DNA of 28,358 nt from a virus (Duplodnaviria > Caudoviricetes). The notes under the pieces are model-generated. The model was not told where the DNA came from. It searched no databases and was given only the letters and a program-made list of their open reading frames with translations. The stretch is taken from IMG/VR virus record IMGVR_UViG_3300024235_000003, positions 1 through 28,358 of that record. The stretch is one strand, 5' to 3'. Below are positions 1 through 28,358 of the stretch, in pieces. Every line of letters begins with the position of its first letter. Position 1 is the first letter of the stretch. Made by a program: the position numbers and the translations under genes.

Positions 1-2
1 TT

Positions 3-2580
3 CAGATCCAATAGCACTGTTTGATTGCTGTCATGACCTCTGTCTCCAGTGCTTTCAAAATGTACTAACGATGTACTGGCATTGGAATTGCCAGTGTGTG
101 TCATGTGTATCAGACTACCGGTTGTTAGTTTGTCTGCTGTGGTGTTGAGCACGTCCCCTGTGGTCAGATCATCAGCATGTACGTTGATCACATCAGCATT
201 GATATTTTTGGCATTGATGTCAAGCAGTTGTTTGTCCGTGTCCTCGTTGTTGAGTTGCACCAGCGGTACATTGTACGCACCACTACCTGAATTGTTTGTC
301 ACCTCCAGTGTGGCAGCAGGTGTGTCTTCACTATCACCAATGCTGATTCTGTTGACCGATGTATCAACAAACAACATGTGTGTTTCATCGTCTGATTCGA
401 CTCGAAAATCTGTGTCACCTCTACCGTTTTCGTTTACTACAACTTCTGACCCGTCACCGTACACAATGAAAGCGCTTGCTGTGGTGGTACTCTCCACACG
501 AAAATCTAGATCTATCGAGTCTTCATTGACCACCACTTCTGCCTGTGTGCCTACTCCTTGTGGTTCTGTAGTGTTTACTTGCCCTCCGATGCTCAACATG
601 TTTCTCAACTGAGCCGGTCCCCCGTCAGTGGCTTGCACCATAAAATTGAGCACTCCACTCGCTTCATTTTGTTGAATGTCAGTGGCTCGGGCGCTGATGG
701 CCGCGTACACGGTGTCTGCGTGATTGGAATCATCACCTTCAAATGTTATCGTGCCCAGATCCATGTCCTTCGCGGGATTATTGCTGGATCTCTTGAAATT
801 TAACAATGCTGGTGTGTCATGTGCAGCGTTGCTGTTGCGTAACTCTAACAACGGGTTCTTGTCTGCTGCTGTTGATTCAAATCGTATCGATTCTTTGGAT
901 CCGCTGGCGATCGCATCATTCTTTATATGCAACAATCGCGCACCAGTGGCAGCTGTGTTGTCGTTCATGATTTTAACAAGATCACGATTTCCTGTGTCTC
1001 CAGAGTTACTATGTAGATTTGCTATCGTGCCGGTGATCAAATCGTCCACACCTGAGATATCCAGCGCTGTACCGGTCGTGATTTTATTGGCATCAATCTC
1101 AGCCACCACTCCGGTGGTCTGTTCTGAATCTATCCTGAACGCACGGGCGTTCGCATTGGATGTGGTGTTGAAATCAATATCTACACCGATACTAGCCGCT
1201 GAACCAGCGCGGTCTCCATATTGTTGAATCAACATTAGTGTGCCAGCATCGTCACTCGTGTGAGTGTCTTTCACATTCATCCCGGTGCCAGTTGTACGGC
1301 TGTCGAATCCAATCTCCAAACCAGTACCGGTGGTCATGTCTGATGCGCTCACGGTCATGGCCGTGCCAGTTGTGACACGTTGAGCGTCAACTTCGACTAC
1401 TGTACCAGTTGTCTGTTCTGAATCGATTCGTAACGCGCGAGCAGCTGGGTTGGCTGTGGTGTCAAAATTGATGTCTAGTCCGATGCTGGCTTGTGTACCA
1501 TCACGATCACCAGCCTGTTCAATCTTGACCAACGCTCCTGCGCTGTCCGTGGTGCTGGCATCATGTATATGCAATCCGGATCCGGTGGTGCGGCTGTCCA
1601 TGTGCATGTGCAACCCTTTACCAGTTGTGAGCGGTGTCGCGTCAATCTCGACAACCGTACCATCACGCTGTTCACTATCTATATATAGCGCGCGAGAGTT
1701 TGGATTATTTGTTGTATCTAAATTTAAATTCAGAAGTGTGCTAGATTGATCTCCGGAGCGATCACCCGCTTGTTCAAATTTTATCAAATTGCCTCCATGA
1801 TCTGATCCGTGGCTATCATATACATGTAAACCAGTACCAGTGGTTCGAGTGCCCATCAACAACTCAATCCCTTTACCGCCAGTCAAACCATCTGCATCAA
1901 TCGCCAAAACACGACCTGTTGTTATTTCACTCGCGTCAACTTCTACAGCAGTACCGGTTGTTTGCTCTGTATCGATGCGTACTGTACGAGCAGCTGTACC
2001 ATCAGTTGTGTCAAAATTCAAATCCAACAACACTGTAGAGTTTGTATCGTCACCACGATCTCCAGTGCTTTCAAGATGTACCAATGACACTTCAGATTTG
2101 TCACTACCAGTATGAGTCATGTGGATCAGACTACCGGTGGTGAGACTGTCTGCTGTGGCGTTGAACACGTCTCCTGTGGTCAAGCTGTCTGCTGTGACTG
2201 ACACAACGTCAGCGCTAACTAAATCGTCTGCGCTCACACTGATCACATCAGCATCAATGTTCTTGGCATTTATATCCAACAATTGTTTGTCTGTGTCTTC
2301 GTTGTTAAGTTGCACCAACGGTACATCAAATGCTCCACTGACTGGATCGTTTGTCACTTCTAATGTGGCTTGTGGTGTGTCTTCACTATCACCTATGCTG
2401 ATTCTGTTGACTGATGTGTCAACAAACAGCATATGATCTTCGTGGTCGGATTCTACTCGAAAATCTGTGTCTGCGTTTCCATCCTCATTAATCACCACCT
2501 CAGCTCCATCACCACTAACCACAAACGCGCCTGTGTTTGTCTCTGAACGCACCACAAAATCCACGTCTGTTTGATATTTG
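3..2580 (-). repeat. Large intragenic duplication: about 3-520 resembles about 2019-2580 (offset 2016-2055 nt)
   Basis: Matching DNA such as tgtgtcttcactatcacc and tccagtgctttcaa, and matching peptide (MLFVDTSVNRISIGDSEDTPxATLEVTN...VPLVQLNNEDTDKQLLDINAKNI) in both copies. The offset changes by 39 nt, one 13-aa unit. Confidence 0.9.
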
Positions 2581-8000: not shown

Positions 8001-10693
8001 TCCGTGTATACATGTGTTGCATCTATAGACAAATCATTGTTGTCACTAGCACTAGTTATAGCATTGGTTAATGTTCGCGCCAATGGCTCTGTAGTAGAGT
8101 CACTTGTGACCCCATACTTGTATGTTGACGCGTCAATTCGTGTTACTTGATCCACTGACAATTGATGATCAGCGATGAATGTGACAGTTCTAGGTGTCTG
8201 GTTGTTGTCAGTTAATGTCAAGCTCAATCCGGAGGGTTGTATGACGTACCCACTCCCGGTAAGATCGATCTGTAAATCCTGTTCAGGTCTCACACCCCCA
8301 CCGGTGAGTGTGCTCAGGTCTATTTTTTTGTCTGATGTGTTGTTATGATCGAGCACCATCTCACGTAGCGTTTGGATGCCGGTAGATTTCAAGCTCACGT
8401 TCTGATCCCGCCCGGTGTTGACGGTTTGTACTTCTATATATTTAGTTATTCCTTGCACATCCGGTATGTTACCTTTGTATGTAGCAGGTATTGAATCTGT
8501 TGTGTCCCTATCGTATATTAACAAGGATGTTTTGGCTGGTCCGGAGGTCTCATGAGTCTCGTAACCGGCGGATGTGAATTGAGCGAATGTGTTGCTGGTG
8601 ACGCTGTTAGACACACGATCGCCAATGCTGGATATGTCTCCACCGGATATTATTTTCTCCAATGTTTGCGGGAGTGATATGTGCATCGCGTCCGGGCCTT
8701 CACCAGACAAACCATCAGAAAACACACCAAACACATAATTGTCCTGTATATCACACTGCAACGATCCGGGATTTTCAACACCACAAGTGTCATCTGTGAA
8801 CAACCCACCATATGACTGTGTGTCGAATGTCGGATCTGGCCGGAAGCCGTGATATGTTATGGGAGTATTTGGTATCAATTCTGTACGTTGCGGATTTGGG
8901 CCGTCGTAAAATGAATTATATGGCTCCAGTGCCTTGAACAGTGTGCCATCACTTTTGCGATAATATTTCTGTCTCCGGATGTCCGGGAATGGAAGCATTC
9001 TAGGAGCTTGCTCTACTTTTGGATCTTGCCCACCGGTCCTACCCCCATCATAATATTCAAAATTTACCGTCCTGTCAGCCCATTGCTTCATTCTAGGGCG
9101 GAGCGTGTCACCACCATCTATTGTGATACATTCAGTGTTTGGTTCAATCTCATCATCATCTATAGCAGATGCGAGCGGCTCGCGGATCGGTGACACTCGC
9201 TTCATCAATGCATATTCGTTGCCAAACATATCTGAACTCCACTCCACTGGTGTCTCGTCAGTTACATTTAGATATTTCTGTCGCTCATCTACTTTAAATA
9301 TATTATGTGCTTCTGATGGGAACACGTCCTCATTAGCCCATTCTTGATTTTTCTCTCCAGAGAAAAAACCTACTGGATCAATCCACCGGCTGACACCATA
9401 CTTTGATGTTTGCTTTACCTCTTCGTCAGATCTATAACCGAAAAATTTAGGAGAAGTCCGTACATTCGTTATATCTCCGTGTAGACGATCATTACTACTG
9501 TCAGCTTTGAACCACGTCACGTCAACATTTTGTTCTATCGGTATATGTTTACTTCCTGCGAACACACTAGGACCATATCTAGATGGATCCGGGATCGGTC
9601 CTGTATAATCAGTGTCAGTATCCACTAACGTAGGATTGTACCCATAATATGTTAGTATTCCTATATTTTCCGGGAGGTTCAATGAACCTAGATTGTATTT
9701 TGATTTATATAATTTAACCTTGTTGTTTGTTATCGCTGGTGCTGATCGATTGAAAATATTACGCCATGGTGCTTTGGCTGTTACCATAGGTGTAACCTCA
9801 CCTCCAGATAGAAACATTATGTCATTCCCCACTAAGCTTGGTATAAACTCAGCCAATTTTGTTAAATTTAAATTTTGTTGATCCTTAGTATAATTGTAAA
9901 AATTGCTATAATCTAACAGTGTTATGTCCGTTAAATCGGACTCACCATTACTAGCAGCAAGACTTATGCCTAGTTCAGATGATAACTCGAGTATCGGTAC
10001 ACAATCCATTAACAACTGCCTCACAGCAGCATCAACGTCTGTGAATATTTGTTGATCATATTCTATGGTGTTATCTCGTGGATCTACAGGTTCTACATCA
10101 TATAGTTCTGTTATGGTGGTGACAACAGAATCAACCTTGTTGTTTGTCATTGCTCCCGGGCTCTTGAGACCTCCTTTCTGCACTCTTTGCTGTCTGGAGA
10201 GTTTTGGCACTGTCACATTTATTAATTGCTTCAATCCTTGCTTGGTACCGGTGGTGGATTTTAGGTTTTTTTGATTGCGGATCGATTGCCTCTCATCGGC
10301 ATAAAATATTGACGTTTCTTTGAGTTTGCTCGCGAAAAAAGTTATCGCGGATTCAACATGCCGAGGGTTGTTGTAATCTAGATTTTGTAGAAATCGTTTT
10401 TGTTCATCTGTTGTGTAATTTACAGCTATATTTCTGAGTGCAGATTTATATTTGTTTATCACATATCTGGACTGGATCGCTTGCCGTTGTTTGGATTTCT
10501 GCTTCCAATTAAACAAATATTTACTATACTCCTTTGACATGTCTTGCCCGGGTTGTAGGTCCACATTCACGTTGTTGAGCCACTCGGTGTATGTCATCGG
10601 TATTTGAGAGTCAGTCGCCGATTCACTACTGTCACCATATAGCATGCTTGCTTTTGGTTCGAAATTCCGGGTTATGTTGAGATCTATTGACAT
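5060..10693 (-). CDS. Giant (1877 aa) virion structural protein, probably baseplate-associated, with repeated beta-rich insert modules
   Basis: Long ORF downstream of gp6 and the 1908-aa gene. Thr/Asp/Gly-rich, with repeated LxAxxxG...GNSLSSxxQL...GG modules. No enzyme motif recognised; function inferred from context. Confidence 0.6.
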   Translation of the reverse strand: MSIDLNITRNFEPKASMLYGDSSESATDSQIPMTYTEWLNNVNVDLQPGQDMSKEYSKYLFNWKQKSKQRQAIQSRYVINKYKSALRNIAVNYTTDEQKRFLQNLDYNNPRHVESAITFFASKLKETSIFYADERQSIRNQKNLKSTTGTKQGLKQLINVTVPKLSRQQRVQKGGLKSPGAMTNNKVDSVVTTITELYDVEPVDPRDNTIEYDQQIFTDVDAAVRQLLMDCVPILELSSELGISLAASNGESDLTDITLLDYSNFYNYTKDQQNLNLTKLAEFIPSLVGNDIMFLSGGEVTPMVTAKAPWRNIFNRSAPAITNNKVKLYKSKYNLGSLNLPENIGILTYYGYNPTLVDTDTDYTGPIPDPSRYGPSVFAGSKHIPIEQNVDVTWFKADSSNDRLHGDITNVRTSPKFFGYRSDEEVKQTSKYGVSRWIDPVGFFSGEKNQEWANEDVFPSEAHNIFKVDERQKYLNVTDETPVEWSSDMFGNEYALMKRVSPIREPLASAIDDDEIEPNTECITIDGGDTLRPRMKQWADRTVNFEYYDGGRTGGQDPKVEQAPRMLPFPDIRRQKYYRKSDGTLFKALEPYNSFYDGPNPQRTELIPNTPITYHGFRPDPTFDTQSYGGLFTDDTCGVENPGSLQCDIQDNYVFGVFSDGLSGEGPDAMHISLPQTLEKIISGGDISSIGDRVSNSVTSNTFAQFTSAGYETHETSGPAKTSLLIYDRDTTDSIPATYKGNIPDVQGITKYIEVQTVNTGRDQNVSLKSTGIQTLREMVLDHNNTSDKKIDLSTLTGGGVRPEQDLQIDLTGSGYVIQPSGLSLTLTDNNQTPRTVTFIADHQLSVDQVTRIDASTYKYGVTSDSTTEPLARTLTNAITSASDNNDLSIDATHVYTDDYREVVLLAQQLPGSSGNVTYTGTTITDNQAYIQPVIATTSTTLDGDGVVIGVDTTYIPTSHEFHGGFESVLTKDISIGLMALTPGEIGNSIELTTDMITEGNVYSRYYDVIPASYSKYDGTYTTSNNSTTTLGLTATKPGGVTYTIYGNSLSSVEQLLHTHEYTSTGDLTMVPRDDVVIRVTGGVTLPAVGIRSTEIGPIDIQLIGDGVSTLRQLVADKNLIITTLGEDYVVASGHEIIITGGRWPVLSELVGQWNSDNNTNRVTVTKGSTTSITSDMKLRLSGGVVTVNYTVPQDYNNEAFDTYCNEHYPEFNPDVGFTSYGNDDPEGEIILRGTLDGETFASNCADVRGEFEYNVDNTVPLFQDTLQISETQYADEEGLDIFTPLTSYQENHASIGRGLFRSYNSARIASVVELIDPLIRDYSLFKNSDYDNFRNELANNKIRSMQMYCDVQMIETEKHIFFMKINFDPKTASMLPPGHPIILTKTTQDDNVIETTIRPYYDTDKHIVLFGHTDTHETGVIYPRLYYVDLNTMLFKQAFPTPGNDISKFVLTGDLIGYQYVSIDRPLICFNEFTNLHSVTYSCKLVNDDDITLHGVCTSDFEIDANGMTLENVFMYHTNPVKIYTPPIDEWEEEMLTLDFELEPNQYWIPTPQQAKHSRYRGVFQLVDGYDGTTVDLSATDAGPEMYTLVGNSLSSLDQLISDLPVELVFGDGSQIMGEWDTVEIAGGQHARGDQDVHVTQSISGTIGRLLSSFELNFNLSTKNIPTDGTDHRVNRLIFDPGDGGDIQVNDRIIASGLEALSFDINDLPDQSDLYDPRRFGFTHKYTFDNSSNTTTTATLTAVYNTFKKLIYSINIETDNFTIDSGFEDVKLIDTQTIVTENNKHKQMFVLETQNPRYISYVTVDRKNYTNSNAVGYVDGEIYAGSFHTMSDGTMMTGESHTPISREISLTPELTTPLQIDSTVTTGDTPETIRSY

Positions 10694-10705
10694 TATTACA
10701 TTTAT

Positions 10706-13700
10706 TTAATCGTCACTATCACTTATGAACGTGTTGATCGAGTCAGTACCATCAAACAGTTGCAAGCCTTCTCGCAACGTCTTTTCAAACATGATATCCA
10801 TCACACCACCATCATCCACCCAATCACCGAACGCGCTAGTGTTGTATGAAACAGTGGTCCTACCATATGGAGTTTGTTTGAATTGTGTGGAATCCGCTCC
10901 GGCCGACCAATCAATTGCGTTGTTTATATATATTTGTTCTTTATTACCGTCTGATATATATTCATTTACTGTGTAGTATTGCCACACATTTCCATCTACA
11001 GGAAAACTGAGACCCCATCCGTATCTGCTCATGTTATCATATGATCCAGAGTTGATATCCAGTTCATATGATGTAATACCATCAAATTGTGTTGAATAGT
11101 GTGGTATGCCTGTTACTTCAGTTATTGAAATTTTTCCGCTTATCTTGGGATCATTCGCGCTTTGATAGTATAAATGCTCTGGTATTGGTCCATGTATCGG
11201 ATGATCGTCTGTTTTTATTATTATCTTACCGGATTCGATCGATTGATTGGATACAAAATTTTCAACAGGTTGTGCAGATGCTCCGGGGCTCGTGGTGATT
11301 ATCACCGGGTGACCGGGAGAGTTTATTGTGAATGTATACACTCTGTTTCGGAACAGATGTATTGTTGGATTTGGATTGATGGGTGTACCTATCAATGATA
11401 TTATCTCGGATCCATCATCTATAGTGAACATAGGGTGAGCGTATCTCATGGATGACATGTATTCAGGTGTGGTTGAGATTCGCATGTTCGGGTCGCTCAC
11501 TATAAAATTATCTCCGGAAAATTCAATACCATAATCCCTACCATCCTCAAAACTAACAACCATGGGGGTCACTAAATTATACGCACCAGTATGCTCCTCC
11601 CGGAAAACTAGCTTCTGATCTACGCTAATTTTTAATTTATTTAGTAGCTTTACTATAACTGGTAGTGTGTTGTAATGTGCTAGTTGTTCCTCTGGTGACA
11701 ACCCGCCATACACCTGTTTGATTCGATCTAAGTGTTGTGACCTTACCAGTCCATCCGGCCAGTGTCTCCAGTATTCTCCATGGTCCGTTCCAGGTTGAAC
11801 ACCCGCGGGTACACTCTGAATACTCTCGTAATACTCACCATCATTTAATACATAATCATTAGCACCGTATGTGTGGCTATCAATTGTGATTGTGATAGCA
11901 TTATCCCTGGACGTTGGTATGTATCCACCGCCTCTCAACACTATCACCTCTCCGGAAGCGACCTGCTTTTGAAACAGCTGCTCCACTGTTAATGTACCAC
12001 CTGGTGCTTGTACCGCTTTGATACTCTCACTCAAATTCCGGGTTGATATTATATGATAATTTTCATTCACATGCTCGCCAGTCATCCACTCCTTGATCAG
12101 TAACAGCTCTGCCCCTAAATTGGTACCAATTGTTTGTTGTTCCATATTACCCATCTTTTCAAAATCATGCTGGAAATTGGTTCTTGTGCCTCTGAGCTTA
12201 GTGAAATTGATGGATAACATATCCATCAATCTCCGGATTTCTGCAGGTTGGGAAGGTTGTTGTTGCATTAACCTATAATTCACCATTGATGCTAAACCGT
12301 GCAATGAGTCTATGGTACATGTGTCAATATCACTGTGATTTTGGATGTAATTGGCAATTCTCTCGTAAACTCTCTTGCCGATACTACTCACATCACTTGT
12401 ATCTGTACCGAATATCGAATTCATCATCTCTGTATATAATTTTGTACTCTCCATCAGGTTACTCTGCTTCATGTACGATCTCAATGTCCCGGCGAAGTCT
12501 TTATTTTCATTAACCTTGACTATCTCATGTGTTCCATGGCGTGGTAACAACTCAAACTCATCACTCGCTCCAGTGACACTGATAAAACCGGTTGTCTCGT
12601 CAGTCTCGACAACTCTAGTATCAAATTTGTTTATCCAGTTGTATCCGGTCCAGTCTCCATTCGCACAGATTATCGATTCAAAACCGGTAGCTGATACAGG
12701 ATTAGCACCATGAGCAGTGCGAAGCTTTACTTGCGGTTCAACAACTGTATCGTAATATCTATTATACGCGGAAAGCCTCTCAGCAGTGGTCCCAGTAAAG
12801 TTTGTGTTGTTGAAAAATACGAGCATTTGCTCTTCAGTCATGTAACTGGAGGGTGTTGAGTACAACATGAATGTGTCTTCATCGGCGAAATTATCACTGC
12901 TTATGGATGGTACCCAGTCAAACTCTTCGTACGGTATATCAGTACTTTCAATATTCACAAACGCACTCAAGACGAAAGTATCTGAATTCATGGCGTATAT
13001 TCTCTTATCAGCATTATTCACCACAAGTACATTGTTGGCGGTATCCATACCCAGTCCCTCTATAGCAGATCTTCGATTGGCATTATCCCGACGATCATAC
13101 AACTCTGCAGACAACGGGTGATACCTAGGATCATCATACGCTGACCCAACTGCAAGTGTGGTGTCAACATAGTCTTGTCTCACGTTGTATCTACTCACAA
13201 ACCGACTGCCCCATGAGAACCAAATATTGTTATTATTGTCTGGAACTACATATGTAGGGTTGTTTATCATATCGAAGCTATCATCCGGTCTAGTATCGGC
13301 TATCACAATTTTTACAGTGTCCAACACACATTTTATCTGTGGGTAATTTTTATCTATCAACAACATTCGCTTTGGTGTATCTTTTGTGATGGTGATGCTC
13401 AATACATCTGTGTCTCTACCAGATAAACCGTCTGTATCCAGGATGATATCACCAGCGTTAGAAAACTGTCTCACATCAGTACCATTAGATATATTGATCT
13501 GGCTTCTAGTAGCCTCTCTTAGTTCTAATTGATGTTGTCCTCCATTCCAATATTTGTTTTTAAATACATATGTGTTTCCTTCGTATAATGTGAGCGGGGG
13601 GTTGTGCATGAAGCTAAAGTCGTCTTCTAATACAAGTGCAGTCTCTACATATTTTTGCTGCTTGTAATCGAACTCTTGATCATATATAAAACTATACTCT

Positions 13701-16432
13701 ATAGTTTCGGAAACCGGTGGAGCCGGCAAGTTCATATCCTGATAAGTTGTGCCTCTCAATGAATCTACAACCAATCTCACGTTCAGTTGCTCATCAAACG
13801 ACATAACAGTTCCGGATAATGGCTGATCAATGATATTACCGGAATGATCAAGCCCGGTTGATTCTGTAACTGCCCATACATGATCATGCACATCTATACA
13901 CATAGATCCTGTAAAATATCGATCCTCTCCAAGGAATTCGAATTTACATAAACGCTCCCCGTTTGAGTTGTACCTTGCTATAAAGCTACATAATGGATTT
14001 GTGTACGTGACAACAATATCATCATTCCGGCAAGTCTCAACAACTCCAGGATTTAATATATTTTCACCATACTCCCCTGGCCGGCCAGTCACTTCATTTA
14101 TTGAGTATGTTGAGTCATATTGCCAGTGCCCGGACGGATTGGTGGTTCTAGAGTTTGCTAGGAAATTATGTTCTGCTGGTACAGCCGCGGCGATGATGCT
14201 GTTTGTATTACCGTCAATCTTCACTGTTGAAATTGTGTCGTATAAAGTCACCCAATAATCATTGTTACTATCTAGACTGATACTGCTTGGTGTGTAACCA
14301 TATGCATCAGGATCACCCGGGTAGTGTTTCTGTTGTTCTTCCGGTGGGAACAGATCATGTATATTGATTTCCGCACGGACATCCATGTTGCGTATGTATC
14401 TTATTATTTTGTCAGTATCCCCATCCACTGCATTAGCATTACCATCCACATCCACTGCCAGCCCATACATTCCACTGTTACCAGGTGTTCTTGTAATGAT
14501 TGGTGGTGTGTATTTTTGTGTGGATCCACTTTCACCATAGCTATACTCACGATAATATACTGGCTTGATTTGTTGTATCGTGTCATTTGATGGGTTTGTT
14601 ATATAGTAGTATAACACTTCTGTATTGAAATATAGTGGAGGGTCTACTAGTGTGTTCACGACCAGTTTGTATTTGTTATCCTTGTACACATCCCAATCTG
14701 CATCCAGATTCACAAATGACAGATATGACCCAGGTGTTTGAAATGATTCTGTAACATCAACAATATCCATGTTGATTGCATCTGTTGTTTTAAATTTTGA
14801 GGATGGTGAGATGTAACCGTAGTAACTAGCGCCCTTTTTAGTTTGCCATCTTCGTGCATGACCACCGGATTCGGGATCAGATTCATTATATATAAGATCT
14901 TTTGCCATTCCATTTGTAAGCGCGGCCTGTTGCTCTTCCACCAACTCACTAAACAGTATATTGACCGTTTTGACAGGTGTCTGCAATGGGGGGTAGTCTG
15001 CGACCCGGTTTAATTCGGTCAACAATATCACAACATATGAGTTGGATATATTCTCAGGATATATTGTACCCACATCCCATGTTTTAAAGTCTTCTGTCGA
15101 TTGAAATGGCTGTGTTATCCTTGTAAATGTTGTGTCAGATCCACTCAAATACATGTTTACGAACCCTTGTGATGTCACTATATCTGTGTATGTGTTTTCC
15201 GCGGAGAAGGACTGTGAGGTCGCGCTCCATCGAGAGCTTAACGGTACCAGGTCATCAGTGGTTAACAGGTATCCTTCATCACCCTCCATTCTCACTGTGA
15301 CCGCAAATGGAGAGTTTGCAAATTTCGAACCGGTGATTCCCATCTCGCTTATGCCATTGCTTGAAACATTCAATCTGGTTGGTAGATTAAATTTGACGCG
15401 TATTGGCATGCCCACTTTTTGTGTCTCATACATCTGAAAATAATTGCTTTTCAAAGATTCGTATTTTGACATGTCCTTGTCATTTGAAACTACTGAAAAT
15501 TTACTGGTATCAAAAGACGCAAAGGCGATTAAGTCCTTATCCTCCACAATCTCTGCCATTTGATTTTCAGTTGGCCTGGCGTTTGAATTTGCAAACGCGG
15601 CTGTGGCACTTCCGGTGCTTCCGGTGGCTTTGGCACTGGTGAGACGGTTGGCCATGTCATCAAGGTAGTGTACTACTTTGGTGCCACTAGTACCGGCGAA
15701 AAATGCAGTTGAATCTAATGCGGATGCCCGGGTGAGATTGTTGTTCTCTACTTTGACATATATATAGTCATTGTTGTCTGTCTGTACCCTCTCTACCGGC
15801 TCAGTACTCTGTGGTGTCTCGACAAAACGCCACCCAGGCACAAGATGTGTGTCAGCATTTGACCAATATTGCTCCGGTGTTACTGGACGGGAACGACTTC
15901 CCTGTGCATATAAATTTAAATAGTAGCCCCCATCACCTGATACAGACGACCAGCTCTGCCAGCTATTAGTTCTATATAATGTCAGTGGTTCTGATGGCCG
16001 GCCTGCTAAACACACTTCAGGTTTTCCACCTATCTCATCAGCTATAGCCTCAGTATACCACATGAGACTATCAGGAACGTAATTTAACACCTTGATTGTC
16101 TGACTTAATTTGTTTTTGTATGTTTGTCCGTTCTGATCGGTGAATATATTTGATATTTTGTACTCTCCAGGGAATTGATATTGTTTGGTGACGGTTACAC
16201 CCACTTGTGTTGTACCGTCCCCGAGATCCCATATTAAATTGTTGAGGCTTGGTCCTATATTTGTATTGTCAAGTGAGCTCAACACAGCTGTGAAAGTGAA
16301 TGGTGTTGGCTCTAGTGTATAGCCGGTTAGTGTTCGAGTACACATATCAGCATCACCCAATCCGTTTTCTGACCGGAATGGTGATACCAGTTCGGTTAAA
16401 CTAGTATATTTTATGTGTTCAAATGTGGCCAT
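10706..16432 (-). CDS. Giant (1908 aa) baseplate wedge gp7-position protein with PKD, beta-propeller-like, cupredoxin-like and CBM-like domains
   Basis: Directly follows gp6 (TGA-c-ATG). N-terminal PKD motif WDLGDGT..KQYQFPGEY; NHL/propeller-like blades (YGLAVDVDGN, SISLDSNNDYWVT, CIDVHDHVWAV, GLGMDTANNVLV); helical segment GKRVYERIANYIQNHSDIDTC..PAEIRRLMDMLSI resembling a wedge core. Confidence 0.6.
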   Translation of the reverse strand: MATFEHIKYTSLTELVSPFRSENGLGDADMCTRTLTGYTLEPTPFTFTAVLSSLDNTNIGPSLNNLIWDLGDGTTQVGVTVTKQYQFPGEYKISNIFTDQNGQTYKNKLSQTIKVLNYVPDSLMWYTEAIADEIGGKPEVCLAGRPSEPLTLYRTNSWQSWSSVSGDGGYYLNLYAQGSRSRPVTPEQYWSNADTHLVPGWRFVETPQSTEPVERVQTDNNDYIYVKVENNNLTRASALDSTAFFAGTSGTKVVHYLDDMANRLTSAKATGSTGSATAAFANSNARPTENQMAEIVEDKDLIAFASFDTSKFSVVSNDKDMSKYESLKSNYFQMYETQKVGMPIRVKFNLPTRLNVSSNGISEMGITGSKFANSPFAVTVRMEGDEGYLLTTDDLVPLSSRWSATSQSFSAENTYTDIVTSQGFVNMYLSGSDTTFTRITQPFQSTEDFKTWDVGTIYPENISNSYVVILLTELNRVADYPPLQTPVKTVNILFSELVEEQQAALTNGMAKDLIYNESDPESGGHARRWQTKKGASYYGYISPSSKFKTTDAINMDIVDVTESFQTPGSYLSFVNLDADWDVYKDNKYKLVVNTLVDPPLYFNTEVLYYYITNPSNDTIQQIKPVYYREYSYGESGSTQKYTPPIITRTPGNSGMYGLAVDVDGNANAVDGDTDKIIRYIRNMDVRAEINIHDLFPPEEQQKHYPGDPDAYGYTPSSISLDSNNDYWVTLYDTISTVKIDGNTNSIIAAAVPAEHNFLANSRTTNPSGHWQYDSTYSINEVTGRPGEYGENILNPGVVETCRNDDIVVTYTNPLCSFIARYNSNGERLCKFEFLGEDRYFTGSMCIDVHDHVWAVTESTGLDHSGNIIDQPLSGTVMSFDEQLNVRLVVDSLRGTTYQDMNLPAPPVSETIEYSFIYDQEFDYKQQKYVETALVLEDDFSFMHNPPLTLYEGNTYVFKNKYWNGGQHQLELREATRSQINISNGTDVRQFSNAGDIILDTDGLSGRDTDVLSITITKDTPKRMLLIDKNYPQIKCVLDTVKIVIADTRPDDSFDMINNPTYVVPDNNNNIWFSWGSRFVSRYNVRQDYVDTTLAVGSAYDDPRYHPLSAELYDRRDNANRRSAIEGLGMDTANNVLVVNNADKRIYAMNSDTFVLSAFVNIESTDIPYEEFDWVPSISSDNFADEDTFMLYSTPSSYMTEEQMLVFFNNTNFTGTTAERLSAYNRYYDTVVEPQVKLRTAHGANPVSATGFESIICANGDWTGYNWINKFDTRVVETDETTGFISVTGASDEFELLPRHGTHEIVKVNENKDFAGTLRSYMKQSNLMESTKLYTEMMNSIFGTDTSDVSSIGKRVYERIANYIQNHSDIDTCTIDSLHGLASMVNYRLMQQQPSQPAEIRRLMDMLSINFTKLRGTRTNFQHDFEKMGNMEQQTIGTNLGAELLLIKEWMTGEHVNENYHIISTRNLSESIKAVQAPGGTLTVEQLFQKQVASGEVIVLRGGGYIPTSRDNAITITIDSHTYGANDYVLNDGEYYESIQSVPAGVQPGTDHGEYWRHWPDGLVRSQHLDRIKQVYGGLSPEEQLAHYNTLPVIVKLLNKLKISVDQKLVFREEHTGAYNLVTPMVVSFEDGRDYGIEFSGDNFIVSDPNMRISTTPEYMSSMRYAHPMFTIDDGSEIISLIGTPINPNPTIHLFRNRVYTFTINSPGHPVIITTSPGASAQPVENFVSNQSIESGKIIIKTDDHPIHGPIPEHLYYQSANDPKISGKISITEVTGIPHYSTQFDGITSYELDINSGSYDNMSRYGWGLSFPVDGNVWQYYTVNEYISDGNKEQIYINNAIDWSAGADSTQFKQTPYGRTTVSYNTSAFGDWVDDGGVMDIMFEKTLREGLQLFDGTDSINTFISDSDD

Positions 16433-22728: not shown

Positions 22729-24381
22729 TTATTTGTTTAGCTGTTCGGTGTTTTTATAAAATATATCTGTAGTATTGAAGTTATTGGACCGGAAGAGAAA
22801 CGGTTTGACACCAATTATCGAGTTTGTGTAACCAGTCGCGGTTATTGTGTGTGTTACTCTGGTCGTGAAATATTGTCCTAACAACTTGTTGTCATATTTA
22901 TTATCAACATACATGTTGTCTCGGTCCAAAGCGAACCACACGCCAGATCTACGGGAACTTGCACCAGTGGAGGTAAATTGTATGCTGTTGCCAAGTAGGA
23001 ATGCTGCTAGTAATTTTTTATTACGACCTTGAGCTAGGTTTAGCTGTGAGTTCGGTGTCCAACTAGATTTCACAGATATATTGAAATTCTCTTCCCTGGA
23101 TTTGTCGGATATCCATGCAGTGACTCCATGACCACTCTCACCACCGTACGTCTTGTTCACGAACATACTTTGGAATTCCTGTTGTACATTTTGTATGTTA
23201 CCATCAGTTATGTTTATGTTGAATGTCTTGGATCTCTCAGAGTATGAATGCACCACCACACTGTTTAGTATCTCCTGACAGTCAACACCATTCATTTCTG
23301 AAAAAACATAATCATCAACAATTGATATGTCTGGATAGTGGTAATTTATCATGGCATTTGACTTGTCCCGACCAAATGTTTTCCGGGGTGGTGGTATGAT
23401 AGTATCGGTGGATTCCGATTCAGATTCAGCTGCTAACAAGAAGAATTCTGATTGATATGGACCTGGACCTTTGTTGGAGTTAGATCGCTCAAAGTATTCT
23501 TGTATTGGTAGCAACTCCCACCTATCGGTGTATCGTTGCAATTTTAACACACATGGTTGAAATTGACTATTACTGGAGCTAACATGCCGGTTCAACACAT
23601 AGTTTATATCATCGATAGCTTTATACTCTGCTGGTGATGTATATAGCATTTCATTCTCTCCAAATTCCCATTGTCGTGAAAATAGATTGGATACATCAGT
23701 TTTGAGCAATGCACTTGATAATAAATCTTGTATTATTTCTCCAGTGTTTTTAGAACGGTTCGTGTCACCAGTTTGGGTCACACTTTGGTTATATTGTAAC
23801 TGGTCTCCGAGTTGGTCTACGTTTTTCGCGGTGCTGTAATATGTATTTTTTTCTCTTAATATCTGTGCACGGTAATCATGAAAATATATCTTTTGCTTCT
23901 TGTCTTTAGAGCCGGAATCGGATATCACATCTTCTACTGCATATATTGAGAATAAAAATTTCATTGTATGTACAACACTATTAACGTCACTAGTGGGTGC
24001 ATCACTCTCTGTAGTGTCTATATGTGGTTCCATACGTATATACAGAAAATCTCTCGCGTCACCTCTTATGGTGTATGGTGATATGTCAACTTTCCCACCC
24101 TGTATGGTATCATTAACGTGTTGACTTGTAACGCGTTCCATTATGTCATGTGGATTGGTGAATGTCATGTTACCGGTGTGGAACCAGTCGAGTATATCAT
24201 CAACTATAACGAGTTCATCAATAGCACCCTTACGTATCTTGACCCCCTCACCATCCGGATTGAGCAAGTACGCACCAAACTTGAACCGCCGGTGGTCAAA
24301 TTGTTCAATACAATTCGGATTGTCCTCATCCAACCTCAAAACCTTGATTACATTCTCAAAAAACTTGATCGTGGGTGTCAT
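22729..24381 (-). CDS. Probable baseplate hub / tail protein (gp27-like position and size)
   Basis: Follows the gp53-like gene with a TAATG overlap. N-terminal IDELVIVDDILDWFHTGNMTF and C-terminal G.SSRRSG.W...LLGQYFTTRVTHTI resemble hub-family beta-barrel patterns. Confidence 0.5.
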   Translation of the reverse strand: MTPTIKFFENVIKVLRLDEDNPNCIEQFDHRRFKFGAYLLNPDGEGVKIRKGAIDELVIVDDILDWFHTGNMTFTNPHDIMERVTSQHVNDTIQGGKVDISPYTIRGDARDFLYIRMEPHIDTTESDAPTSDVNSVVHTMKFLFSIYAVEDVISDSGSKDKKQKIYFHDYRAQILREKNTYYSTAKNVDQLGDQLQYNQSVTQTGDTNRSKNTGEIIQDLLSSALLKTDVSNLFSRQWEFGENEMLYTSPAEYKAIDDINYVLNRHVSSSNSQFQPCVLKLQRYTDRWELLPIQEYFERSNSNKGPGPYQSEFFLLAAESESESTDTIIPPPRKTFGRDKSNAMINYHYPDISIVDDYVFSEMNGVDCQEILNSVVVHSYSERSKTFNINITDGNIQNVQQEFQSMFVNKTYGGESGHGVTAWISDKSREENFNISVKSSWTPNSQLNLAQGRNKKLLAAFLLGNSIQFTSTGASSRRSGVWFALDRDNMYVDNKYDNKLLGQYFTTRVTHTITATGYTNSIIGVKPFLFRSNNFNTTDIFYKNTEQLNK

Positions 24382-24764
24382 TAGATTTTTTGCTTGATCT
24401 CATCAATTATTATCCGTATAACTTCCGGTTTTGGTATCATTAATTTAGTACCTCCATTGATCTCACTAAATGTATCGTCAATTTGATTCATTGCTGCGAT
24501 AATCCACCATAAATCAATTCGTTTATAGTTTGTGTATGAGATGTTGGTCCATGTTTCACCCTGTTTGGTGTAATATGTGAAATATGCACCTGGTGTCACA
24601 CGTTCAGGGAAATTCACAGTGTTGAGTATGTTATAATAGAAATGTTTGGCGCCATGTTGCTTATATACATCAAATACACGCTCGAGTTTAAATTCATCTT
24701 GCGCGTTGAGATTTAACAATGTTTGCACCTCAAATTTATTATATGATGTCGGTTCTTGTGTCAT
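24381..24764 (-). CDS. gp53: Baseplate wedge subunit, T4 gp53-like (LysM-like fold)
   Basis: YYTKQGETWTNISYTNYKRIDLWWIIAAMNQIDD...GTKLMIP matches the gp53/LysM-type pattern. Confidence 0.75.
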   Translation of the reverse strand: MTQEPTSYNKFEVQTLLNLNAQDEFKLERVFDVYKQHGAKHFYYNILNTVNFPERVTPGAYFTYYTKQGETWTNISYTNYKRIDLWWIIAAMNQIDDTFSEINGGTKLMIPKPEVIRIIIDEIKQKI

Positions 24765-26017
24765 GTTGATCCAGTTCGTATCTTATCATTCATAGATTCT
24801 TTTAACATCTGATATTTAGAGTTTTGAGTCTCACTAAACAACTCTGTAACAGTGATTGACACTTGATATGCGTCCGGGATGACGGTCAAGATCTTTTTCT
24901 TATCTAATAACCAGTTAGTTTCACTTGGTGATCCAACTCTAGATGATGATGAGTCTAAAAACATTATGGGAATCTCCATCTCTCTACGCGCTCCTAAAAA
25001 ATCTACTCGCATGTCTGTTATACTGGAGTACTTACTGTACCACACACCAGGTATATATGACTCGTATATACATGGCGGATCGATAAGATCCCTATTCACA
25101 CGATTGGGTGTGTTTTGATATGCTAATAGAAAAAGATACTGCCAGTTTTTAATTATCTCAACATAGCTTTTTGTGTTTAACAGTGGGAATGTCACAGTGT
25201 ATGACTTTTCCCGTCCGGTGAAACTGAATGCTTTGGGTTTTTCTATCAATCTACCAGGTGATAACAATCGATTGGTGTTTAATCCTTGTATGAGCTCATT
25301 TCCTCCTTCTGCTAGTTTGGCCATTGCCGTTGTCCATGCTCCTTGACCAGTCATCGCGGATTCTCCGAACGTACCGGTGGTGGAAGAGTATGTATCTTCC
25401 ATATATGGTAGTGAGTATTTAAATCCAGTGGGCATAACTGTGTATAGTAGTTGATACGGGTTCATAGGATCAGCAAAAGTTGATTCCTGTTGAGCTTGGG
25501 TGCTCTCTATAGTCGAGTTTAACAGTGTTGATATCTCTTTGGCTTTCTTATCAAAACTGAAACCATCACCAGATATTTCATCCATCACACCCTTCAACTT
25601 CTCAACTCCGTCAGCCCCACTACCTACAGCAGCTTGAACATTGTTAGCAATTTGATTCAACATGGGGTTAGATAATATTTGTAACTCCTTTAAGTTCAAG
25701 ACCGGTACTTCGCGGCGAGATGATATCGGGGATTCTGTCCAGTGATGTTCATCTCTAACGTTTATATGTGTGCTAGGTCCGTTTTGAGTGCTAGCGAATA
25801 TGTCTTCCGGAGAGCTTCCGGCGGATGTTATAGGGGATAGTCTAGGAGCAGGTCCATATCCGGATTGGCGCTTCAAATCACTAGCAGCTCCAGTATATCC
25901 ACCAAATACTGATCGTTTAGGTGGTAGCATTTTCCAATAAAACCGGACATTTGGTGGTATTACACCTTTCCAGTTCTCGTCTAGATTAAAATTGTTTGAT
26001 ATGTCGAATTTTATCAT
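24761..26017 (-). CDS. Baseplate tail-tube cap/initiator (gp48/gp54-like)
   Basis: EKPKAFSF..REKSYTVTFPL, PPCIYE..IPG..Y..ITDMRVDFLG and IPDAYQVSITVTEL fit a tube-like fold; located between tape measure and gp53. Confidence 0.55.
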   Translation of the reverse strand: MIKFDISNNFNLDENWKGVIPPNVRFYWKMLPPKRSVFGGYTGAASDLKRQSGYGPAPRLSPITSAGSSPEDIFASTQNGPSTHINVRDEHHWTESPISSRREVPVLNLKELQILSNPMLNQIANNVQAAVGSGADGVEKLKGVMDEISGDGFSFDKKAKEISTLLNSTIESTQAQQESTFADPMNPYQLLYTVMPTGFKYSLPYMEDTYSSTTGTFGESAMTGQGAWTTAMAKLAEGGNELIQGLNTNRLLSPGRLIEKPKAFSFTGREKSYTVTFPLLNTKSYVEIIKNWQYLFLLAYQNTPNRVNRDLIDPPCIYESYIPGVWYSKYSSITDMRVDFLGARREMEIPIMFLDSSSSRVGSPSETNWLLDKKKILTVIPDAYQVSITVTELFSETQNSKYQMLKESMNDKIRTGST

Positions 26018-26448
26018 TATGTTCTGGTCAGAATGTTGTTTATGTAATATGGTTTGTTATCTGAAGTGATTAAGGAGTAGACATCGACGATCTCATCACT
26101 ACCCATGGTGTATGTTCTTGTCACTACATGTTCTTGTGCATTCACATCACATAATATATCCCCTCGATTGATTTGATCGCTATGTATGTATCGGTCTTTC
26201 TTTTTTTCATACACCAGCTGCTTGCCTGTGCAGATAAACACTTCCATATCTTGTATTTGTAAACAAGTGAACTTTTTAGCACTAGATTTCCTGGTGCTAG
26301 CGACTAATGACCATGTGTTGTTCACCCGATTTTTTGACATTATCATCAAATCATCACATATATTGAATCCGGCGATATATTCACCTATAGTTATTTCTGA
26401 AGTTATACCACTTTTCATAACACTGACTATACATCCACTCTGTACCAT
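26017..26448 (-). CDS. Standalone Hint (intein/Hedgehog)-fold protein lacking catalytic residues
   Basis: Blocks align over the full length: A MVQSGCIV..SG..TIGEY, B FICTGKQLVY, YIHSDQINRGDIL, F/G VDVYSLITSDNKPYYINNILTRT*. Confidence 0.7.
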   Translation of the reverse strand: MVQSGCIVSVMKSGITSEITIGEYIAGFNICDDLMIMSKNRVNNTWSLVASTRKSSAKKFTCLQIQDMEVFICTGKQLVYEKKKDRYIHSDQINRGDILCDVNAQEHVVTRTYTMGSDEIVDVYSLITSDNKPYYINNILTRT

Positions 26449-26454
26449 ATATAT

Positions 26455-26462
26455 TATTTATC
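26455..26462 (-). promoter_or_regulatory. Late promoter-like motif (GATAAATA), 6 nt before the Hint-like ATG
   Basis: Minus strand reads GATAAATA-atatat-ATG right at the tape-measure stop. Confidence 0.6.
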
Positions 26463-28357
26463 TATAGTGACAGTCTTCCAATGGCTTTGTTGCGATGTGA
26501 GATTATATCAGAATCTCTTGTCACATTTGTTACGTTTGTACTGTTTCCCCCGTTGTTAACAACGGTATTACCCTGTTTGTCCACCAATCCATGTTCCTTT
26601 AGTGTGACAAGTGTTTTTTGTTGTGTGTCAGCTGTCTCAGACATTATCTCAACCATTTTGTCCAATTTCTTACCCATCGCATCATTTACTTTTGATTGAT
26701 TATCTATCGTTTGATTGTTCGTTGTGGACTCAATTGATTGCTTATACACCTTACGTGGATCTTCTAATCCATTCATTATGTTTATATCGAAACTCTTCCA
26801 TTGATCTACAGACGACGTCGTGTCTTGAGGTTTCAACACAGTAGGTGTATTGTCTTGGAGTTTCACCGGGGGAGGTGATTTGACCTTAGGTATTCGCTGT
26901 ATACTGTCTAATAGTAGCTTATTTTCCTCCAAGGTCCTCCACCGCCTAGGGGCTATAGGTGTTGCTGACACTTTATTAATCTCAACTGTGGTTTTTTCTT
27001 CTACCTGTACAGGCTGTGCTGTTGTCTTGTTGATGTCATCACGTGACATTGGAGCCACTCTATTGACTTGTGTTGTTGTCTTGTTGATGTTGTCACGCTC
27101 ATACTTGTCCACGAGCTCCATCAACTCTTTACCTTGCTTTTCATACTCACTGTCTTGTATAATCTTAACCTTCTCGTAGTGTGCCGCTAGTGCTTTGTAT
27201 ATTTTCTTGCTTGTGGCTGTATTAGAATCTGACAGTTTATCTAGAGCTAATCTGATGAGGTGCGAAGATTCTATTGACATGGGATCGTTTCCGAACTTTT
27301 TCTTTATCACCTCATTTATCCGAGCATCCACTAGAGCGGTACGACCTTTATCCCCATCTAGTTCCGCCCATTTTAATCTCGAGGCGATGTACTCAGCGTC
27401 CTTGTTACCAAATATCTCTCCAGACACATCAGATCTTACCTTGCTCATCTCTTCCCGGACTGCGGCCTTATTTCTACGAGATTTCGCCTGATCACTTGTC
27501 TCAAGCTTCATACTATCTGGTAATATCGTGTTGAATTTATCTCTCATGTAGTCTAACGCCACGTCCATATCCAACATCTTGTCGAGAAATGTGAACACCG
27601 GATCCATCTTCCCGGCTATCCATTTTGATGGGTCACTCACCCAATCCGGCAGGTGTCCTTTTATGTCCATGTTACTCCACATGTCATCTAACCACTTCCA
27701 TGCAGATGTAATCTTACCGGAGATATACTCACCAACATTAGTCACACCTGTGGACATCTTGTCCCAACCGGTTTTAATTGATAGTTCTAAATCTGGAAAC
27801 ATGTCACTAACCCAGGACCACACTCCAGATATCTTGTCCCACAACCAGTCACCAACATTATTCACACCAGTGGCTACTTGATCCCAATGAAGCTTTATTG
27901 TTGTTTTCGGATCTGACCACATAGCGGTAACCCAGGACCACACTCCAGATATCTTGTCCCACAACCAGTCACCAACATTAGTCACACCAGCAGAGACTGT
28001 ATTCCAACCAGTTTTAATTGCTAGTTTCATGCCATCAAACGTGTCCTTCATCCATCTCCACACACCATCCACACCGGTCCACAACCAGTCACCAACATTA
28101 GTCACACCAGCAGAGACTGCATTCCAACCGGATTTGATCGACGTTAACATGCCATCAAACGTGTCCTTCATCCACTTCCACACACCACCCACACCGGTCC
28201 ACAACCAGTCACCAACATTAGTCACACCGGTGGCAATTTGATTCCAACCGGATTTGATCGACGTTAACATGCCATCAAACGTGTCCTTCATCCACTTCCA
28301 CACACCACCCACACCGGTCCACAACCAGTCACCAATATTAGTCACACCGGTGGCAAT
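26462..28357 (-). CDS. Tape-measure-like / baseplate hub length-determinant protein (5'-truncated by window edge)
   Basis: Frame stays open past the track's GTG at 28345 to the window end. Trp-periodic amphipathic 40-aa repeats; C-terminal NTVVNNGGNSTNVTNV typical of T4-like hub/tape C-termini; upstream of gp48-like and gp53-like genes. Confidence 0.7.
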   Translation of the reverse strand: MATGVTNIGDWLWTGVGGVWKWMKDTFDGMLTSIKSGWNQIATGVTNVGDWLWTGVGGVWKWMKDTFDGMLTSIKSGWNAVSAGVTNVGDWLWTGVDGVWRWMKDTFDGMKLAIKTGWNTVSAGVTNVGDWLWDKISGVWSWVTAMWSDPKTTIKLHWDQVATGVNNVGDWLWDKISGVWSWVSDMFPDLELSIKTGWDKMSTGVTNVGEYISGKITSAWKWLDDMWSNMDIKGHLPDWVSDPSKWIAGKMDPVFTFLDKMLDMDVALDYMRDKFNTILPDSMKLETSDQAKSRRNKAAVREEMSKVRSDVSGEIFGNKDAEYIASRLKWAELDGDKGRTALVDARINEVIKKKFGNDPMSIESSHLIRLALDKLSDSNTATSKKIYKALAAHYEKVKIIQDSEYEKQGKELMELVDKYERDNINKTTTQVNRVAPMSRDDINKTTAQPVQVEEKTTVEINKVSATPIAPRRWRTLEENKLLLDSIQRIPKVKSPPPVKLQDNTPTVLKPQDTTSSVDQWKSFDINIMNGLEDPRKVYKQSIESTTNNQTIDNQSKVNDAMGKKLDKMVEIMSETADTQQKTLVTLKEHGLVDKQGNTVVNNGGNSTNVTNVTRDSDIISHRNKAIGRLSL

Positions 28358-28358
28358 T
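27690..28358 (-). repeat. 120-bp (40-aa) tandem repeat, at least 5.5 copies, coding
   Basis: acaaccagtcaccaa(c/t)atta recurs at 27841, 27961, 28081, 28201 and 28321, with a degenerate copy at 27721; unit GVTNVGDWLWTGVGGVWKWMKDTFDGMLTSIKSGWNQIAT. Confidence 0.97.

Follow-up and report, generated by a model that had tools for sequence, protein, structure and literature searches.

Self-splicing or self-cleavage is what Hint domains are known for, inteins being mostly viewed as parasites, and in the C-terminal-cleaving intein tags that have been engineered Cys1 is replaced. Splicing, as set out in PMC4031507 and PMC7765530, requires a nucleophile at position 1, the Thr/His of block B and a terminal Asn, and the cyclization of this Asn is able to run uncoupled, releasing the C-terminal part. 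A-type BILs cut their own C-terminus via His-Asn without ligation, and engineered C-terminal-cleaving tags are described in the same source as being in general use (PMC7765530). Class 2 inteins (the KlbA type) are defined by an N-extein, Cys+1, His at B10 and Asp at F4, and mutation of the B10 His in the KlbA intein lowers C-terminal cleavage (PMC4031507); class 3 inteins have an N-extein, a +1 nucleophile and a Trp-Cys-Thr triplet (PMC2807308). In T4 tail assembly, the tube polymerises on a platform made up of gp48 and gp54, and gp26 and gp51 are hub assembly chaperones (PMC3004832).

The gene compared here with these systems lies in a stretch of 28,358 nucleotides of tailed-phage DNA (IMG/VR record IMGVR_UViG_3300024235_000003; hereafter the window), which is the late region of an uncultured T4-like myovirus and encodes portal, gp6, gp25, clamp loader, dUTPase, gp53-like and tape-measure proteins. 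The sequencing runs that contain this stretch are labelled seawater or viral metagenomes; no cultured phage yielded a homolog of its gp48-like protein at E 1e-3, and portal matches were at most 35%. The operon of interest is read from the minus strand, on which all of its features given below lie. The 3′ part of the tape-measure gene (26462..28358, cut at the window end; phrog_58, E 3.6e-9) is followed by the Hint-fold gene (26017..26448), a 418-aa gp48-like (baseplate/tube junction) gene (24761..26017), a 127-aa gp53/LysM-like baseplate wedge gene (24381..24764; phrog_7145, E 2.4e-7) and a conserved 550-aa gene (22729..24381) that is hub-like by position only and has no named profile match. 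The gp48-like label comes from gene order and language-model features, which score 0.96 to clusters carrying PF11091 (T4_tail_cap) on 16% of their members; profile searches of Pfam, PHROG and PDB gave no match for this protein. Elsewhere in the window, the tape-measure gene carries 120-nt tandem repeats (40 aa, Trp-rich, 77–91% alike) at the contig end (27729–28348), and two huge ORFs of 1877 and 1908 aa occupy 5060–16432 (-) between gp6 and portal; a PKD domain is all that is recognised in them, and their products are probably wedge or fibre proteins.

The Hint gene is free-standing and encodes 143 aa, beginning MVQSGCIV and ending NILTRT-stop. An in-frame stop precedes its ATG by three codons only, which leaves no N-extein. 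The first-pass annotation, whose span of 26017–26462 comprised this ORF and 14 upstream bases, had described a Hint domain from end to end without exteins, and this description holds, residues 1–143 being in register with Hint structures. The residues that it listed were also read correctly: Met1 (26446..26448) stands at block A position 1, where active inteins have Cys or Ser; block B reads T74-G-K-Q77 (26218..26229); and R142-T143, followed by the stop, occupies the block G His-Asn site (26020..26025). In block F (26053..26076) S125 (F4) and K132 (F13) are likewise as stated, but as signs of catalytic loss they are weak, because F4 is T, S, A or N and F13 mostly Gln across the family, including those members that keep His-Asn. 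With neither nucleophiles nor exteins, the window protein is predicted to be dead for splicing and cleavage.

Profile searches of Pfam, PHROGs and NCBIfam with the window protein returned no Hint family, and phmmer gave no match in the PDB. The protein does not reach the Pfam cut-off of PT-HINT or Intein_splicing, which is exceeded by three of 25 relatives, namely P0153, P0159 and P0164 (both families). Structure prediction places it in the Hint fold: the ESM Atlas model (pLDDT 0.85) has a TM score of 0.80–0.86 to PT-HINT domains in all ten rows listed, and AlphaFold2 with the 28-row alignment reached a pLDDT of 95.9, superseding a run on a two-sequence alignment that gave 39.9 only. Foldseek comparison of the AlphaFold2 model with the PDB returned exclusively inteins, BILs and Hedgehog Hints among the listed matches. 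VIA-align superimposed model residues 1..143 on 1..135 of the Clostridium thermocellum BIL (2lwy) with Z 19.3 and an rmsd of 1.5 Å over 131 residues and, as this alignment spans the whole domain, Met1 falls at the Cys1 position and Thr143 at that of the terminal Asn. Among 48,161 chains, 31 had Z of at least 8 and every one was Hint-fold; none was a solved virion chain, in a library of representatives only. The matches of the family profile are also inteins, the best by sequence being NrdJ-1 (8ubs, E 8e-15). The horseshoe proposed in the first pass is thus predicted for this ORF by each structural comparison. The AXH family (PF08517) shares one Atlas cluster with Hint families; AXH has been linked to dead Hints, a link for which a search of open-licence PubMed Central and bioRxiv papers found nothing.

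By its residues the window gene is outside intein classes 1–3, the A-type BILs and the split inteins, but within the Hint fold. Of the class 1 features, it has Met1 instead of Cys or Ser, retains T74 with Q77 replacing His10, and ends with a stop after residue 143, leaving neither a +1 Cys/Ser/Thr nor an insertion between two exteins. The N-extein, Cys+1, His B10 and Asp F4 of class 2 are all absent, and the class 3 triplet of Trp B12, Cys F4 and Thr G5 reads V79, S125 and T141, one position in three. Both of these classes likewise have a non-nucleophilic first residue; they have an N-extein and a +1 nucleophile, as PMC2807308 describes, whereas the window protein has Val at B12, Ser at F4 and no extein. 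The A-type BILs and PT-HINT domains share its minimal fold and size (Z 19.3 for 2lwy and 18.4 for Tetrahymena BIL2, 6tmm). However, BILs are internal, begin with Cys and end in His-Asn before a domain that is released, whereas the window Hint begins at Met1 and has no N-extein, His-Asn or C-terminal partner. Phage mini and split inteins, such as NrdJ-1 (8ubs, Z 19.3), gp41-1 (6riz/6qaz) and Spl DnaX (7cfv), also have the same fold and no endonuclease domain, but they splice within replication and nucleotide enzymes, while the window family has no Cys1 and no exteins to join, lies in a tail operon and is unsplit, the window protein carrying the entire fold on one 143-aa chain. What the window protein does have are the properties of a pseudoenzyme, namely an enzyme fold, no catalytic residues, and purifying selection, the codon test for which covers relatives that keep His-Asn.

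Searching 1.84 billion proteins with a profile yielded 28 matches at E ≤ 0.001: the query, 17 further free proteins, two fused forms, two fragments and six ordinary proteins that bear a Hint, the last of which were excluded from the family. With the window protein and P0002, this gives 19 free representatives; the free proteins are 139–150 aa long, at 20–40% identity. Ten of the 19 end in His-Asn plus 2–7 residues, and nine lack the pair, two of these having Asn only. Scans of viral contigs with single proteins or a two-row alignment found no Hint relatives, a metagenome scan found solely the window's own sequence (L001, a 99.6-kb contig), and a scan of prokaryote genomes for the family found none.

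In a second form, which the first-pass annotation did not include, the Hint domain precedes the gp48-like protein on a single chain, as an N-terminal fusion. This is known from predicted proteins and was found in seven of 120 listed gp48-like homologs (148 found in all), these being P0047, P0054, P0066, P0069, P0071, P0072 and P0075, of 565–627 aa. Since several fused clusters have multiple full-length members, sequencing error is disfavoured. A profile of the fused domains, run against 125 stored proteins, recovered the window protein at E 8e-18. Six of the fused proteins begin at the Cys1 position, and the start of one was called six residues further in. All seven carry His-Asn, with Ala, Thr or Met as the next residue, and so have by sequence the His-Asn and downstream domain of a BIL; the frequency of His-Asn in fused and free forms (7/7 vs 10/19) gives a Fisher p of 0.058, for sequences that are not independent. 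Their logic matches that of BILs, with a Hint ending in His-Asn and a C-terminal partner predicted to be released. In the fused forms B10 is Gln and so, for the most part, is F13; given the effect of B10 in KlbA, self-release at the C-terminus of the Hint leader is a prediction. They also resemble the engineered tags in having a dead N-terminus, a retained His-Asn and a cargo behind it, with cleavage again predicted; they differ in occurring naturally, in being encoded by phages and in having a two-gene counterpart with which they are interchangeable.

Across the 28 aligned members Cys1 is absent throughout, Met1 and Thr B7 are invariant, and B10 is divided between His (14), Gln (13) and Ala (one). 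A strand reading T52-R53-x-S55-x-x-K58-D/K59-F60 is also conserved in the family. The alignment thus indicates that Cys1 is lost family-wide, and His-Asn only in some lineages. The suggestion that relatives would also lack the catalytic residues is therefore borne out for Cys1 and not for His-Asn, which part of the family retains. The converse possibility, of homologs that mostly bear Cys1 and a window copy in decay, finds no counterpart in the data, as no member has the Cys and the window copy keeps the conserved columns.

Synteny and promoter position tie the gene to the baseplate operon. Among 81 scanned loci the Hint gene is present in seven, the window's own and L003–L008, and in the window and all six viral loci, which represent four distinct gp48-like partners, it lies directly between the tape-measure and gp48-like genes, as the first pass had expected of relatives. 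For eight of the 11 free-Hint clusters looked up, the longest contig is exactly that of a gp48-like homolog, which implies a shared contig, not adjacency; one of these, P0100, is the most basal member of the clade, on a long branch. The locus L002, nested within the clade, retains all the neighbours and has no Hint gene, so the gene is dispensable in close kin. More distant loci with sufficient upstream DNA also lack it (73 loci tested), weak upstream matches being seen in L078 (E 0.0065) and L054 (E 0.34). A motif at the end of the tape-measure protein, I-x-x-F/H-R-x-x-x-x-G/S-R-L, is conserved with or without a Hint gene downstream (window region 26481–26465; L002, L003, L005, L006, L010 and L055). 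In L027, a distant relative, the clamp-loader gene is broken up around a 314-aa ORF that may be an intron or homing element (13500–15814).

The tape-measure stop lies 13 nt ahead of the Hint ATG, and between them, 6 nt 5′ of the ATG, is the motif GATAAATA (26455..26462), late-promoter-like by the T4 late consensus. Across the whole window ATAAATA shows no enrichment (11 found vs 7.5 expected); its position is what matters. In 51 distinct Hint-less upstream regions, 40 have TAA[AG]TA within 25 nt of the gp48-like start (background 2.6%), as does L002, where the motif stands straight before that start; in Hint-bearing regions it is near the gp48-like start in none of four and before the Hint start in five of five, with the Hint ATG 5–8 nt past it in each. 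The motif was thus rightly placed before the Hint ATG, but it is not the gene's own, as first proposed: it is the late promoter of the operon, with the Hint gene lying between it and the gp48-like start. A sigma-70 promoter scan gave nothing specific. Five genes of the window have ATAAATA within a few bases of the start codon and lack a clear Shine-Dalgarno motif (18784 and 20963 on the plus strand; 26461, 18743, 18739 and 5041 on the minus strand); late mRNAs may have almost no leader.

At its 3′ end the Hint gene is coupled to the gp48-like gene as the first pass described, its stop overlapping the next start in TAATG (26015..26019), the site that corresponds to the His-Asn junction of the fused relatives. 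Other loci have TAA-T-ATG, TAA-TC-ATG or TAA-TT-ATG here. Translation that continues into the gp48-like gene by programmed frameshift or read-through was considered and rejected, since the frame offset varies among loci and no slippery run was seen. Between L006 and L008 the Hint proteins are 99% identical and the adjoining gp48-like genes 68%, a recombination breakpoint exactly at the Hint/gp48 junction.

In the Hint tree the fused domains are monophyletic (94/97), and the gp48 parts of the fused proteins fall within one 15-row subclade that also holds unfused proteins (a quick tree of 126 rows, partial proteins below 380 aa omitted). One fusion is simpler than several fissions, and the free state is therefore probably older; an early fused stage may have preceded the spread of the clade, which would explain free proteins with His-Asn and short tails. 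His-Asn is absent from the long-branched group made up of the window protein, P0002 and P0148. The window lineage has a branch of 1.62 and 22% identity to other members, vs 33% among those, and the window and P0148 Hints are 40% identical where their gp48-like partners are 84%. The free genes are under purifying selection. Free relatives that keep His-Asn have dN/dS far below 1, as the first pass had anticipated (nine synonymous vs one non-synonymous change for L006/L008; dN 0.39 and dS 1.67 for L003/L005), while the window lineage was assessed from proteins only: its protein is hydrophobic at 30 of 33 family core columns (background 0.43) and matches P0002 at 48 of 70 family-conserved columns vs 28 of 69 variable ones (p 0.001), the same contrast falling short of significance in both comparisons that involve P0148 (p 0.22 and 0.10). 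The gp48-like and gp53-like genes evolve at about half the rate of the Hint gene, and Hint and gp48 distances are uncorrelated (Mantel r 0.10, p 0.23, 16 pairs). Contigs covering the Hint gene occur in each of four RNA-library runs, for which DNA carry-over is possible, and the single non-synonymous variant in the gene across four DNA runs is uninformative.

Free Hint domains without Cys1 also occur elsewhere. A Foldseek match in a viral library led to LVP1_g075 of Lactobacillus phage P1 (L106:21821-22252), which like the window Hint is free, Cys1-less and of 143 aa; it has Gly at the Cys1 position, GNQ in block B and a His-Asp-stop end, and is annotated as hypothetical. The protein is present in the cultured Maenadvirus-type phages P1, P2, Maenad (L107:1420-1929) and Satyr, conserved at 59% in the last two, and its gene sits among the non-structural genes of a siphovirus, outside the tail module. 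The hhalign comparison with the window family (probability 72%, C-terminal half only) indicates a different family, only distantly related. Free dead Hints thus arose more than once and need not serve tails. Further Hint-like proteins of 128–171 aa, extein-free by length, were seen in Herelleviridae sp., Aeromonas phage CC2 and unnamed bacterial clusters (BFVD rows 5, 19, 31, 34, 43 and 48; Atlas feature rows 1–3), and free Hints may be a wide class.

Taken with its context, the gene is likely a former intein now retained as a tail-assembly helper. That the window Hint itself is a non-catalytic binding partner of the gp48-like baseplate protein, aiding its folding or assembly, is a tentative reading, held at a little short of an even chance. 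In the ancestor of a single phage clade, an intein or BIL-type Hint would have inserted downstream of the late promoter and ahead of the gp48-like start codon, and its Cys1, useless without an N-extein, would have been lost. Made first from the late transcript, the Hint would be supplied at about one copy per gp48-like chain through the stop/start overlap. One lineage would then have fused the two genes with His-Asn retained, the leader being released by Asn cyclization, while free-gene lineages, the window's included, would have been able to lose His-Asn. By analogy with T4 gp26 and gp51, the helper would hold the gp48-like chain until it joins the baseplate; the proposed role, of a small late protein aiding assembly of the baseplate centre, is the same, although the folds are unrelated and the gene context is what suggests the role of the Hint. 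The free and fused layouts would yield the same two products in roughly equal amounts, the pattern expected of a helper made with its client and then separate, and what the fused relatives retain is precisely what freeing the gp48-like protein would require. The confident fold (pLDDT 95.9, Z 19.3), the kept core columns, the synteny, the fused forms and the RNA-library coverage count for a helper; the absence from L002, the fast window lineage, the lack of Hint/gp48 co-divergence and the Lactobacillus case count against it. The fuller account, in which the intein was domesticated into a tail-assembly chaperone acting either in trans as a dead free gene or in cis as a self-cutting Met1-Hint-His-Asn leader, is possible but doubtful.

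Some of these observations would suit an inert intein remnant whose reading frame serves only to bring ribosomes to the gp48-like gene on a late mRNA with almost no leader. The Hint ATG follows the late motif closely in all five loci and the gene is tightly coupled to the next, its absence from L002 is clean, the window's lineage evolves rapidly, and His-Asn has gone in several lineages. A loading frame needs no fold, however, yet the core columns are kept and dN/dS is far below 1; the size stays at 139–150 aa despite the low identity; and in Hint-less phages the gp48-like start stands right behind the motif (the 40 of 51 distinct cases above), so that a leader frame is unnecessary. Such a relic is judged unlikely. 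The late motif, the structural-gene neighbourhood and the coupled translation would equally fit a stoichiometric virion subunit, permanent in the baseplate or tube base by the gp48-like ring or the tape-measure end, and fusion to a structural gene would fit such co-location. But L002, a close relative, keeps every neighbour without it, the roughly twofold faster evolution of the Hint gene is at odds with such a part, and the cleavage residues in all fused forms suggest that the two parts must separate; permanent residence in the virion is accordingly thought improbable.

Host-interaction genes are often patchily present and fast-evolving, and both traits are seen here, which raises the alternative of a role outside the tail, in which the protein would bind some protein of the host or the phage, active inteins included, or act as its decoy, and would only use a slot behind a strong late promoter. 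The independent Cys1-less Hint of the four Lactobacillus phages, conserved at 59% among non-structural genes, would agree with this. Its fixed position clade-wide and its stable fusion to the gp48-like gene argue otherwise, and no second Hint was found in the window or in three related records that are 34–41% complete, so that the regulation of active Hints elsewhere in the genome, raised in the first pass, is without support. A role away from the tail is regarded as distinctly improbable.

The gene is real, conserved and apparently undescribed, with context as the guide to its function: searches of open-licence PubMed Central and bioRxiv papers, outside which such a description may exist, listed none of a Cys1-less Hint, whether free or leader-type, from a phage tail operon. 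A family that lacks Cys1 across a deep phage clade, with several lineages lacking every catalytic residue, points to a non-catalytic use of the Hint fold. The leaders of the seven fused proteins are candidate natural C-terminal self-cleaving tags, and the Lactobacillus case points to a broader class of free dead Hints that lacks annotation, for which it offers a genetically tractable system. If the proposed domestication is true, this phage clade would preserve the entire path from an autoprocessing domain to a pseudoenzyme.
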